From a virus (Duplodnaviria > Caudoviricetes), in IMG/VR virus record IMGVR_UViG_3300014613_000100, positions 1 to 25,343 of that record: a stretch of 25,343 nucleotides of DNA; one strand, written 5' to 3'. Within the stretch, counting starts at the first letter, position 1. Every line of letters begins with the position of its first letter. Below, in pieces: positions 5,616 to 23,446 of the stretch. Under the pieces are notes generated by a model that saw only the letters and a program-made list of their open reading frames with translations, had not been told where the DNA came from and ran no database searches. Position numbers and translations under genes: made by a program.

Positions 5616-6476
5616 TTATGATCCCCACACATTCATATCGTTTTGTCTTACATTTTCTGTTATACCAACACGTGAAGAATCCATTGATAATTTTTGATTA
5701 ATTTTTTTATCAACCAAATGTTTTATTAAAGTAGATTTTCTTGGAAGACCTCTTGGATTTTCCATTGCAATAGATTTTATATTTATATTCTCCAACACTG
5801 CTTCAGCTTTCCTTGCAATGGCTATTATATCACTAGGTGTACTCCATGTATTAGGGTATGTCCATTTACCCCAACAATCAGGATTATGTTGATGGTAATG
5901 TTGAAAATACTCTAATCCTATTATTTTATGTGTAGATACTTTTACCACTCTATATCCTTCAGTATCAATTCTAAAAATAATATTTGTCAACATCTTCTTT
6001 GACATTTTAGGATTAATATTTTTAAAATCTACAGTTTTTGGCCAATAAATACCTTGGACAAACCATGTATATGAACCATCTCCATGTTGACCTCTAACAA
6101 CAGATAAACCTTGAATGGCATGTTCTATATTAACCTCTGGCATTGAAATGATTGAAGCTATTTTTCTATCATAATCGGCTTTCTTTTTTTCATATGATAA
6201 CTTAAATGTTGATATTAATTGTGAAGTTTCTATACTTCTTTTATTAACTTCATCTCGAATAAATTTCATTTTAGAAACCAATTTCTCTCTAAATTCTTCT
6301 CTTATTTCGTCCTCTATTGATGATATTTCTTCTTGGACCAGATCCATTTTTATTATCTTATTACCAATCCTCATTGATATTCCATTTGTTTTTATAGAGT
6401 CAACAATTTTTTCATCCACCAATCCTAATATTTCTTCTTTTTTCTTATCCATATTTTTTAATATATCTTCCATCAT
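5616..6476 (-). CDS. Coiled-coil plus putative prokaryotic E2-like domain
   Basis: Charged helical N-half; C-half FQHYH....DCWG resembles E2 HPN/HPH...C.G; lies between Ubl and E1. Confidence 0.55.
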   Translation of the reverse strand: MMEDILKNMDKKKEEILGLVDEKIVDSIKTNGISMRIGNKIIKMDLVQEEISSIEDEIREEFREKLVSKMKFIRDEVNKRSIETSQLISTFKLSYEKKKADYDRKIASIISMPEVNIEHAIQGLSVVRGQHGDGSYTWFVQGIYWPKTVDFKNINPKMSKKMLTNIIFRIDTEGYRVVKVSTHKIIGLEYFQHYHQHNPDCWGKWTYPNTWSTPSDIIAIARKAEAVLENINIKSIAMENPRGLPRKSTLIKHLVDKKINQKLSMDSSRVGITENVRQNDMNVWGS

Positions 6477-11515: not shown

Positions 11516-12214
11516 CTAATACGGATAATTATATATTTCCATCTTGTTATTATATGCCCAAACCCACATGTCCCTACGGAGTTTTGCCCTATATACTCTA
11601 CCTTCAAACATTCTTTTCAAATTATAAAAAACAATACCTTCGGCCATAACCTTATTGCCCATTTTACCAGAGAAAAGAGAAAATAAATAATCTTTAAACC
11701 ATAAACTCCAATTCTCAAATGTTCTATCATGTTGGTGAAATGATTTATATCTAAGGTGTTTAATAGCCTTTTCAAATGGATACCAAATATTATAATTTAA
11801 ACCATAAATATTTTGTTGAATTTTATTACCTACCACTTCACCGGCTTGTTCTCCGTCTCTTTGAATATAACTCTTTGATATAGCTCTAAAAACTCCTTCT
11901 ATTATAGCAAGTTTACCCTTGGCTTGAAAAAGGTTCAATGGATCAATTTGATTGGTCCTATTGTATAATGAAACCAATTTTCCGTTTTCTGTAAGAAGTT
12001 TTACATTGGTTCCATCAAGTTTTTCTACCGCGAATGTATTAGGATCATCAATTACCCATTCATAACCAGGTGTAACCTCAGGTGTAACCAAATATACTTC
12101 TGGAGATCTTAATTGAAGTTCTTTACCATATTTTATCCAATCATCTCTATTAATTTTATAGGTTTTACGAATAAATGGACAAAGCATTTTTGGATAATTT
12201 GATAATTCTTTCAT
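11516..12214 (-). CDS. ATP-dependent RNA ligase-like nucleotidyltransferase
   Basis: Motif I EKLDGTN, GE, EGIVF, AKLR; no OB domain. Confidence 0.8.
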   Translation of the reverse strand: MKELSNYPKMLCPFIRKTYKINRDDWIKYGKELQLRSPEVYLVTPEVTPGYEWVIDDPNTFAVEKLDGTNVKLLTENGKLVSLYNRTNQIDPLNLFQAKGKLAIIEGVFRAISKSYIQRDGEQAGEVVGNKIQQNIYGLNYNIWYPFEKAIKHLRYKSFHQHDRTFENWSLWFKDYLFSLFSGKMGNKVMAEGIVFYNLKRMFEGRVYRAKLRRDMWVWAYNNKMEIYNYPY

Positions 12215-12922: not shown

Positions 12923-12997
12923 TGGAGGTCCTATAGGGAGTCAAACCCTAAACAAATCGTGTTGCGGACGATAGCCTTGTCACTTGGATATAGGACC
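12923..12997 (-). tRNA. tRNA-Cys(GCA), divergent
   Basis: GGTCCTA/TAGGACC, ATCGT-CCGCAAC-ACGAT, U73, CCA; D-loop lacks GG, T-loop TTTGACT. Confidence 0.75.
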
Positions 12998-13246: not shown

Positions 13247-13935
13247 TTATGGCACAGTGGACTAAAGTACCTGTGCCTTCCAGAATACCGTTAAGGATAT
13301 ATTATCCAAGGCTTTCAGCCCATTTCACAAATATTCCAGAAAAACTGGACAATAATATAGGATTTTTATGATATAAGATTTTCCGGAATTATTATATTAC
13401 TCACAGAAGTCTAATAACCCGTCGGTTGCCCACGGAAACTCCTCATACTCCATTGCCAACTTAATAAAATTGTTGTGGCATTTTTTATTACATCATGAGT
13501 GTACTACCCATTTATAACTGGAAGGACTCGCCACGGGAACCTTCATTACCCATATAATAATGGATCATGGGGCCGACATATTTCAAATATGCTAAAAATA
13601 ACTAAATAGTTATCACGGTTATCCCATAATCCATTATAATTTAGGGAATGAAAAGAGAGATTTGTACTCTCAACGGAGAGACAAGTAACTTGTAATTAAG
13701 TGTTCTCCGAACCTGAACCCGTATGTCTACGATTTGGTGTCATAACATTATAGACATTATGGAGACATTATCGGCCTGATATATATCAGTTCTACCCACA
13801 ATACTTTACATAATATCCTTTCTGTTATGAACGGTCACCTGGGCACAATCCCTGTTCAGTTAAGTTATCGGCCTTATCAACCGACTTTTCCTTACATTTT
13901 CAATTTACTCCCCGCCAGGAGTAAATTTTCCCCAA
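13247..13935 (-). ncRNA. Candidate large structured ncRNA (~690 nt)
   Basis: No ORF >=60 aa, dense hairpins, a long-range helix, dedicated promoter, ends just before a tRNA. Confidence 0.6.
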
Positions 13936-13951
13936 AATCTTTAATATCCTT

Positions 13952-13980
13952 ATTATAACAAAATTTATATAAAAAGTAAA
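13952..13980 (-). promoter_or_regulatory. Promoter TTTACT-N17-TATAAT
   Basis: Motif with extended TG immediately upstream of the ncRNA candidate. Confidence 0.75.
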
Positions 13981-13997
13981 TATTTTATTTTTAAAAG

Positions 13998-16555: not shown

Positions 16556-16581
16556 CTTTCTTCCTTTCTATAATTTAAAAG

Positions 16582-16943
16582 TGGAGACGGCCGGAATCGA
16601 ACCGGCGTCCGCAAATTATCAACTTCAGTTGGATTACAATCATTATGGGTTATAATTTCTTTATATACCATGTTAAACCCACATTACATTAATATATGCA
16701 CCTGTTTAAATTGTCGGAAAATAAAGAATAACAGGAATTCAAAATCTCTTACCTTTCTAATCGGTACCTTTATAAATCCGAAAGGAAAACTTACAAGGCA
16801 GATCATTTAAGCCGCTATGGCTAGATCGTAACTATAATCGTCTGCAATTATATTTAAGTTGGTCATGTTTATAACGGGTTACATGCCATCCCGTAATTGC
16901 AACCTACATCTCATTATCCACGTCGAATACCATTTACGTCCCC
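16582..16943 (-). ncRNA. ssrA: tmRNA
   Basis: 5' GGGGACGTAAATGGTATTCGAC, 3' T-arm plus CGTCTCC-A with G3.U70; tag frame 16845-16807 encodes ADDYSYDLAIAA*. Confidence 0.95.
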
Positions 16944-17744: not shown

Positions 17745-17794
17745 TAGTAGAAATAATGGGAGTCGAACCCACACTATATAGATATTACATCACT
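17745..17794 (-). pseudogene. tRNA remnant / minihelix (acceptor plus T-arm only)
   Basis: GTGGG-TTCGACT-CCCAT then TATTTCT-A-CTA; imperfect 5' partner AGTGATG only 15 nt upstream. Confidence 0.45.
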
Positions 17795-17842
17795 GAAATC
17801 GTGTGGCGCTTATAAACCCACGGAGGATTATGGCCACTAATT

Positions 17843-18134: not shown

Positions 18135-18289
18135 TGGTAATGAGAAGAGGAATCGAACCTCTTATTAGTATTTAGCCACCGATTGGGGTCAGTTACACCA
18201 CCTCATAAGTTACTAACTTATTATTTGGCACCATACATCATATAGTAACCCGGTTCTTACTCGGAAAACTATAGCAACCAGCACCCATC
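18135..18289 (-). ncRNA. 155-nt tRNA-like RNA (acceptor, T-arm, CCA; no D or anticodon arm)
   Basis: 5' GATGGG pairs with CTCATT-A-CCA; AGAGG-TTCGATT-CCTCT; internal hairpins. Confidence 0.6.
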
Positions 18290-18411: not shown

Positions 18412-18497
18412 ATATGTTTCAAAAAATCATCTTTTAATAAACAGGTTTTTTTACCTCTTTTCTTACCCCATTTAGATAGATTATTTTTATTTAAGAG

Positions 18498-18578
18498 CGG
18501 AAGAGACAGGAATCGAACCCGCTACGCTATTATACGCCAGAGCTTTCAAAACTCTTTATCCCCATGGACGACTCTTCC
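18498..18578 (-). tRNA. tRNA-Ser(TGA), very short D loop
   Basis: GGAAGAG/CTCTTCC, G73, AGAGT-TTTGAAA-GCTCT, long variable region; no CCA. Confidence 0.8.
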
Positions 18579-18614: not shown

Positions 18615-18690
18615 TGGCACTCCTGACAGGATTCGGACCTGCATTATCCCTGGTTCGTAACCAGGCGCTGTTCCGTTCAGCTACAGGAGT
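18615..18690 (-). tRNA. tRNA-Arg(ACG)
   Basis: ACTCCTG/CAGGAGT, CCTGG-TTACGAA-CCAGG, CCA. Confidence 0.9.
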
Positions 18691-18811: not shown

Positions 18812-18894
18812 AGCCCTCAACAGGAATCGAACCTGCATGCGTCCGTTACGTTATTATTAATGCGCGGCTTAGAAGGCCGTAACGCTATGAGGGC
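18812..18894 (-). tRNA. tRNA-Arg(TCT)-like, no canonical D-arm
   Basis: GCCCTCA/TGAGGGC, CGGC-CTTCTAA-GCCG, GCAGG-TTCGATT-CCTGT; about 7 nt between acceptor and anticodon arm. Confidence 0.75.
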
Positions 18895-20121: not shown

Positions 20122-20207
20122 TGGTGCGTGGACAGGGAATCGAACCCCCAAGGCATCCACCTTACTTTAGCCAAGTGATTTACAGTCACCTGTAAGGAAA
20201 TCCACAC
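20122..20207 (-). tRNA. tRNA-Tyr(GTA)-like, no canonical D-arm
   Basis: GTGTGGA/TCCACGC, GGTGA-CTGTAAA-TCACT, TTCGATT, A73-CCA; D-arm replaced by TTTCCTTACA. Confidence 0.8.
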
Positions 20208-21300: not shown

Positions 21301-21398
21301 TATTATTCTCCTTTCTTATTTGTATAATATATTGTCTCTTTTTAAGTAATAAAAATCACAATTTCTCATTTTATTGGAACTAACTCCTTTCTTTGATT

Positions 21399-21535
21399 TA
21401 ACCGGAACAGGATTCAAACTTATACTATGTAACGTTATTAATTACCGCGCCTTATGCGTCTACCAATGGTAAAATGGCAAGCCTTACCAGCCGTCCACTT
21501 ATTGTGCGCTTACTTGCCAATTTCGCCACCCAGCC
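21399..21535 (-). pseudogene. Degenerate tRNA-like element with structured insertion
   Basis: GGCTGGG-TG-GCGAAATTGGCA...TTGGTAGACGC, weak T-arm with TTTGAAT, no clear anticodon arm. Confidence 0.45.
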
Positions 21536-23337: not shown

Positions 23338-23420
23338 TTAATTTGATATCAGGGCCGGAATCGAACCGACAGTCTCTCCTAAGAAAAATATTTCCACTAC
23401 ACTACCTGATATCAAATTAA
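23338..23420 (-). ncRNA. tRNA mimic without anticodon loop, 16-bp closing stem
   Basis: TTAATTTGATATCAGG/CCTGATATCAAATTAA, D-arm with AGTGG, T-arm GTCGG-TTCGATT-CCGGC. Confidence 0.6.
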
Positions 23421-23446
23421 GCCCCACAATTACCTATCAACGGATA

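Follow-up and report, generated by a model that had tools for sequence, protein, structure and literature searches.

We found that a tRNA-Arg(UCU) gene in a phage tRNA array carries the parts of a canonical tRNA-Arg in an altered order, with the segment equivalent to positions 10-21 placed downstream of the segment equivalent to positions 22-45. The gene lies on the minus strand at 18812..18894 of the window, as we call the whole stretch of DNA that was analysed, a 25.3-kb linear virus record, and it extends from position 1 to the discriminator U73, with CCA not encoded. Covariation among homologous sequences strongly supported the reality of the rewired fold, and we infer from sequence that the gene probably specifies a functional rewired Arg tRNA. 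A broader proposal, about which we lean slightly towards doubt, is that such genes represent a widespread and undescribed second wiring of the tRNA core, comprising functional, cloverleaf-free, L-shaped phage tRNAs for Arg (with six anticodons), Ile and Tyr that are interchangeable and have gone unrecognised in hundreds of cultured phages, including phages of E. coli.

Organization of the gene and its array

The window contains T4-like replication genes (two clamp-loader subunits, an exonuclease, a resolvase, thymidylate synthase and an RNA ligase), and its clamp loader was at most about 33% identical to those of cultured phages among the ten best matches. ARAGORN reported 23 tRNAs and one tmRNA in a large minus-strand array, with the Arg(UCU) gene absent from the list. 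Rfam matched the gene to tRNA-Sec only, below threshold (26.6 bits against a cut-off of 47), and did not list it under RF00005; with our model R1, which includes the gene itself, the score was 74.7 bits and the next match in the window reached 40.8. AGA made up 118 of the 198 Arg codons in the 33 window ORFs. The claim of an earlier note on this DNA that the gene is the only UCU tRNA of the window agreed with our survey of candidate stem-loops (one of nine with UCU plus a downstream T-loop), in a fragment estimated to be 11% complete.

Read along the minus strand from 18894 to 18812, the gene has the layout that the earlier note described. The 5' strand of the acceptor stem (positions 1-7, 18888..18894) pairs with 18813-18819, and in an alignment of 66 homologues this helix was 98.7% paired, with all seven pairs changing on both sides. 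The U8-A9 connector follows (18886..18887), being U and A in 66/66, where U8 was favoured by the parser score and the A after it was not. Directly after the connector comes GCGU (18882..18885), the equivalent of the D-stem 3' strand (22-25), which covaries with 18848-18851. The anticodon arm (18864..18880, loop CU-UCU-AA, anticodon UCU at 18873-18871) has a helix that was 93% paired, and its top pair is an A-C mismatch in this gene. It is followed by a variable-region linker of 12 nt, GC and then AU-rich (18852..18863), whose GC (18863-18862) can form, together with GC at 18840-18839, a short helix that is pseudoknotted with the D helix. The relocated equivalent of the D-stem 5' strand (10-13, ACGU, 18848..18851) was assigned by covariation and by its correspondence to 10-13 of a canonical orthologue, and the relocated D-loop equivalent (A14 A15 C16 G18 G19 A20, 18842..18847) was read from the sequence, its motif being fixed by the search pattern. 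A return strand, C-GC-AU (18837..18841), ends in A and U48, two bases conserved among homologues; this A is likely the equivalent of A21, and U48 is likely the Levitt partner of A15. The gene closes with a canonical T arm, GCAGG/UUCGAUU/CCUGU (18820..18836), largely fixed by the search pattern, and with the acceptor 3' strand and discriminator U73 (18812..18819), which were placed from the sequence and the homologue alignment.

Sequence comparison thus gave a block order of 1-9, 22-45, 10-21, 48-73, against the canonical 1-9, 10-21, 22-47, 48-73, and a D helix formed by the strand after A9 and a variable-region strand, with the anticodon arm enclosed between them. The D hairpin is absent, as had been claimed, with 5 nt between A9 and the anticodon stem. 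A promoter-like TAGATA-18-TATAAT ends 4 nt upstream of the gene; it was given no weight as the gene's promoter, being too close to the gene, and it is one of 18 such sites where 9.6 are expected.

Several other features of the minus-strand array were recorded. The tmRNA (16581-16943) is of phage type with the tag ADDYSYDLAIAA. About 740 nt at 13250-13990, between tRNA-Ile(UAU) and tRNA-Gly(GCC), hold no listed ORF of at least 50 aa and folded much better than shuffled sequences (z -6.8, 0/20 shuffles as good); the segment matched no Rfam family and no phage homologue except for a 50-nt piece, and is a candidate large structured non-coding RNA. A tRNA-Cys(GCA)-like gene of cloverleaf form, whose T-loop is UUUGACU, lies at 12923-12997 and is missed by both ARAGORN and Rfam. 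Four further segments (18135-18215, 17745-17835, 23340-23430 and 21395-21480) are tRNA-like or decayed genes in which a T arm is present and a clear cloverleaf absent, the last of them containing an AU-rich segment similar to the linker of the Arg(UCU) gene. A tRNA-Ser(UGA) at 18497-18578 has a very short D hairpin (4-nt loop) and a weak match to the tRNA-Sec model.

Homologues

Unannotated relatives were found by blastn in or near the tRNA clusters of Vibrio, Rhodococcus, Mycobacterium and Streptomyces phages, and an exact-pattern search of viral contigs returned no close relative of this copy. A pattern scan that required a UCU loop gave 40 loci, 28 of them true members on reading, and scans that left the anticodon free yielded 114 loci in viral sequences and 75 in genomes. 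Because U13, A14, A15, G18, G19, A20 and the greater part of the T arm were set by the search patterns, conservation at these positions, G18, G19 and A20 among them, provides no independent evidence. The parser scored the acceptor stem, anticodon stem, U8, U33 and R37 only, and the long-range helix was not used in choosing rows. Its output of 68 distinct genes was reduced to 66, including the window gene, by the removal of two mis-parsed canonical tRNAs, and 60 of the 66 came from the anticodon-blind scans. For a held-out metagenome set, 64 of 117 loci were parsed and yielded 53 new distinct sequences, of which 51 were kept and two, again mis-parsed canonical tRNAs, were dropped. The unparsed matches (114 distinct in the first set, 53 in the held-out set) were mostly canonical tRNAs or coding DNA where inspected, and the parser overlooked at least one true member (L012/L062).

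ARAGORN detected 0/66 of the homologues. All 66 have only 5 nt from A9 to the anticodon stem, while their linkers vary in length (3-12 and 4-8 nt; usual linker 3-5 nt). On RF00005 the homologues scored 32.6-36.4 bits, compared with 55-66 for neighbouring tRNAs.

Covariation of the long-range D helix

At its centre the long-range helix has two pairs that were Watson-Crick throughout the 66 homologues, with all four pair types represented at each: 23:12 was CG in 36, UA in 17, GC in 7 and AU in 6, and 24:11 was GC in 37, CG in 20, AU in 6 and UA in 3. By corrected mutual information they ranked 5th and 7th among 1596 column pairs, amid the pairs of the acceptor and anticodon stems. The counts are inflated by relatedness of the homologues, although all four pair types are still present at both positions. 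In the held-out set each central pair was Watson-Crick or G-U in 50/51. The covariation between the 5' strand and the variable region on which the earlier note had made its fold depend was therefore found in both sets. On an independent MAFFT alignment the whole structure was 94.4% paired, compared with 65.1% for shuffled sequences and 34-47% for slid partners, and two near-identical genes (L019 and L028) were a single compensatory change apart.

The flanking pairs were less regular. Pair 25:10 was standard in 39/66, and pair 22:13, which was U-U in 34, A-U in 14, C-U in 10 and G-U in 8, was standard in 22/66; the D helix is therefore short and must rely on tertiary contacts. Position 26 was paired with the last linker base in 9/66 only. 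The long-range pairing proposed in the earlier note stood, but not its length of five base pairs, since the conserved helix has 3-4 bp and the fifth pair is the one seen in nine genes. Thirteen members with long linkers have an extra helix of 1-2 bp, which crosses the D helix and closes off the variable region; it is GC/GC in 3, CC/GG in 3 and a single C-G pair in 7.

Folding energies gave a different picture for this copy. Its single-sequence fold had an MFE of -26.7 kcal/mol (z -1.94) and preferred an extended anticodon stem; the noted long-range pairing came to -25.5 kcal/mol and a rival pairing to -25.7 kcal/mol. The remark that other pairings of the 5' strand are possible was borne out, and because the MFE favours another pairing, the support for the fold is covariation and not energy. 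These values leave the rival pairing within 1 kcal/mol of the MFE, and RNAalifold on the homologue alignment predicted the acceptor, anticodon and T helices only, without the D helix. Both results would suit a D-armless tRNA of the mitochondrial tRNA-Ser kind that has no relocated D arm and in which either a replacement loop is present or the 5' strand pairs with the segment just before the T arm. That pairing was tried in a rough test on loosely aligned columns and rejected, being 35.4% paired compared with 37.6% for shuffles, against 66/66 for the central pairs of the D helix. A D-armless form is largely refuted by the covariation, and we give it very little credence.

Arginine identity

Among the 60 members from anticodon-blind scans all anticodons were those of Arg (UCU in 41, ACG in 9, UCG in 8 and CCU in 2), and C35 and U/G36 were present in 66/66 homologues. 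The 51 held-out members span all six Arg anticodons; C35 and U/G36 occurred in 51 of the 53 held-out parses, the remaining two being the mis-parsed canonical tRNAs. The discriminator across the 66 was A in 28, G in 23, U in 15 and never C. In the text of PMC9976931 available to us, the bacterial Arg identity set is given as A20, C35, U/G36 and A/G/U73, and the anticodons and discriminator use of the rewired genes agree with it. A20 is present in the Arg(UCU) gene but was fixed by the pattern in the homologues. The Ile-type member has U at this place. The Tyr-type genes, like those for Arg, have A, so the A after GG is not Arg-specific within the rewired class.

Exchange with canonical genes in Streptomyces phages

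We found that canonical and rewired genes occupy the same slots in related Streptomyces phages. The slot after tRNA-Gly holds a canonical Arg(UCU) gene in Sushi23, EGole and Braelyn and a rewired one in Genie2 and Mildred21; in Sushi23 and Braelyn this slot precedes a short run of small genes and tRNA-Ala. A second slot holds a canonical Arg(UCG) gene in Genie2 and a rewired gene in Braelyn and Mildred21. Braelyn therefore combines canonical UCU with rewired UCG, Genie2 has rewired UCU with canonical UCG, and both slots are rewired in Mildred21. A canonical Arg(UCU) gene was not found in the 40-kb tRNA region of Genie2 or in the 12-kb region of Felixounavirus garuso.

Bases 10-19 of the Sushi23 gene were identical at 9/10 positions to the variable-region block of Genie2. 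The earlier note had described AACGGA as a mimic of the D-loop; the likeness is real, but the block is more than a mimic, because its near-identical counterpart lies at the normal place in the canonical syntenic orthologue, which identifies it as a relocated D-stem strand plus D-loop. The window has an internal comparator in the neighbouring canonical tRNA-Arg(ACG) (18615..18690, minus strand), whose AACGGA loop is in the normal D-arm place. From the slot exchange and the shared block it follows that the rewired gene is a canonical tRNA-Arg with 10-21 and 22-45 exchanged, which replaces the canonical gene. HNH endonuclease genes adjoin rewired Arg genes in Braelyn (L298:6169-6543), Mildred21 (L299:5432-5866) and Roth49 (L239:1292-1801), and these endonucleases are a possible route of exchange between slots.

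Distribution and annotation

The rewired form was seen in cultured phage genomes of several families, and a T5-like phage had the canonical form. A gene of E. coli phage 121Q annotated as tRNA-Leu(taa) (L238:787-868) is a rewired Arg(UCU) gene; used as a query it matched 679 phage records, 244 of them over at least 80% of its length. The genes of 121Q, Klebsiella phage Roth49, Felixounavirus garuso, Vequintavirus ZYD and a Kuravirus all fitted the model (5/5, 61-72 bits), whereas canonical tRNAs at the loci of these five phages scored 29-39 bits on it. The GenBank labels of rewired Arg genes include tRNA-Leu, tRNA-OTHER, tRNA-Phe and tRNA-Val, as well as Undet or none; mislabelled examples are the 121Q gene, two in Mildred21 (L299:880-957 and 5868-5946) and Yaboi H161. 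The inventories of phage tRNAs are thus wrong for many genomes, which affects arguments on codon compensation and anti-defence that are based on them.

Such labels, and the failure of ARAGORN to detect the gene, are what a degenerating pseudo-tRNA or an assembly artefact would also give. The 117 distinct parsed sequences with compensatory changes, and the occurrence in several cultured phage families, refute decay or artefact at the level of the family, and for the gene as read here we find this explanation barely credible, though this copy alone could be inactive.

Outside phages the form was scarce. Nine of 75 GTDB loci were rewired, and in one Patescibacteria class 1/151 genomes had a rewired gene, on a contig that also bears a tRNA array and is probably a phage binned with the genome; no core-genome role in this class was seen among the 151 genomes sampled, 4/5 matches in them being canonical tRNAs. 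The 121Q gene had no plasmid match and no match in E. coli genomes at E 1e-8. A tandem pair of rewired Arg(UCU) genes (L221:240-319 and 500-579) was observed on a Chthoniobacterales MAG contig, the second copy being without the A before U48.

Some phage tRNAs have decoy roles, and this phage- and array-bound distribution would fit a tRNA mimic, in which the fold is real but serves mainly as a decoy for anticodon nucleases or uncharged-tRNA sensors, or as an ArgRS sink, with little decoding. We regard a mimic as unlikely, since the rewired genes replace canonical Arg genes one for one at syntenic slots, their anticodons follow the six Arg codon families, and their acceptor and anticodon stems are of canonical length and covary.

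Tyr and Ile forms

The window contains a second rewired gene, a tRNA-Tyr(GUA) (20122..20207, minus strand), which has the topology of the Arg gene; its long-range helix is of 6 bp and its crossing helix of 3 bp. The statement that the two genes share a layout was correct for topology but not for dimensions, the Tyr helix being 6 bp. In the Tyr gene and five IMG/VR viral homologues, collected by a scan whose pattern fixed the loop motif, the long-range helix was 97.2% paired and 3/6 pairs changed on both sides; ARAGORN detected 0/6 of these genes. The first Tyr pattern had given no matches, and blastn of the Tyr gene had given T-arm matches only. Genie2 also has a rewired tRNA-Ile(GAU) that is missing from its annotation (MK359332.1 74565-74644; L292:2566-2645). 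The loop of this gene contains GGU, and 79 phage records match it over at least 80% of its length.

Proposed fold and function

We propose that the RNA would fold directly, without splicing, into the normal L shape, with three backbone links of the core re-routed: A9 to 22, 45 via the linker to 10, and 21 to 48. In the tRNA core, positions 9, 21, 22, 46 and 48 are near neighbours, so the chain can be re-routed by joining A9 to 22 and A21 to 48 and by spanning the distance from 45 to 10 with a linker of 3-12 nt. This path would preserve U8-A14, A15-U48, G18-U55 and G19-C56 as tertiary contacts; in an alternative numbering, the A after U8 would act as A21. The elbow and L shape are likely rebuilt, as suggested by two conserved bases: U48 was U in 28/28 true members of the UCU-loop scan, where the position was free, and the A preceding it, left free by all patterns, was present in 65/66 homologues and 50/51 held-out members. 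A20, C35, U36 and N73 would remain where ArgRS reads them. The host would add CCA and its ArgRS would charge the RNA, which would then read AGA codons during infection and supplement AGA decoding.

Genes with permuted segments can mature by ligation, as in the circularly permuted tRNA genes treated in PMC3978253 (in the part of that paper available to us), and the window encodes an RNA-ligase-like protein (11516-12214, phrog_548, E 4e-7); the gene might accordingly be read as specifying a precursor with scrambled segments, which cutting and re-ligation would turn into a canonical cloverleaf. This would require three cuts and three joins, and circularisation cannot restore the canonical order because the 5' and 3' ends are already normally ordered. 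Together with the variable linker lengths and the retention of the crossing helix in long-linker members, these points make a re-ligated precursor highly improbable compared with direct folding of the rewired RNA.

The rewired gene probably originated by duplication of the 10-47 region followed by loss of complementary halves, and it moves among phage tRNA arrays as a drop-in for the canonical gene. Phages may keep it because the two forms are neutrally interchangeable, or because it escapes host enzymes that recognise connectivity.

Comparison with known tRNAs

To our knowledge, the cloverleaf is treated as universal outside mitochondria. If the proposal is true, it is shape, and not connectivity, that is recognised by synthetases, EF-Tu, RNase P, modification enzymes and the ribosome, and a new scaffold for orthogonal tRNAs is at hand; the natural pairs of canonical and rewired orthologues, with phages that infect E. 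coli K-12, make the question directly testable. No description of the rewired Arg topology was found in the literature or in Rfam 15, in a search to which subscription journals and bioRxiv supplements did not belong. A preprint on 'rearranged tRNAs (rtRNAs)' in Patescibacteria and phages reportedly describes a non-cloverleaf secondary structure that still forms the L shape, and the chances that it does or does not cover the rewired Arg class seem to us about equal.

The rewired tRNA resembles canonical bacterial tRNA-Arg (RF00005) in its 7-bp acceptor stem, 5-bp anticodon stem with 7-nt loop, 5-bp T stem and UUCRA loop, in U8, A14/A15, G18G19, A20, C35, U/G36 and U48, and in its use of the same slots in Streptomyces phages. 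It differs in that the D hairpin is absent, 10-21 and 22-45 are exchanged, and the D helix encloses the anticodon arm. With the D-armless mitochondrial tRNA-Ser of PMC7609411, a paper whose available text mentions neither phage nor rearranged or permuted tRNAs, it shares the lack of a D hairpin after the acceptor stem. As far as that text describes them, however, D-armless tRNAs have lost the D arm and have a flexible connector, whereas here the parts of the D arm are all kept, the T-loop is canonical and the connector strand is paired with covariation. Like the circularly permuted tRNA genes of algae and an archaeon, as portrayed in the accessible part of PMC3978253, the gene has its segments out of order, but in those genes the 3' half lies upstream of the 5' half, and here the acceptor strands are in normal order. 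Allo-tRNAs, selC* tRNA-Cys and tRNA-Sec, in the section of PMC5389517 available to us, are likewise non-canonical bacterial or phage tRNAs with a long variable region, and the weak match to tRNA-Sec is a further likeness; they have an acceptor/T branch of the 8/4, 9/3 or 13-bp type and a D hairpin, in contrast to the 7/5 branch and missing D hairpin of the rewired form. The rewired tRNA is therefore outside the cloverleaf, D-armless, circularly permuted and allo-tRNA classes.
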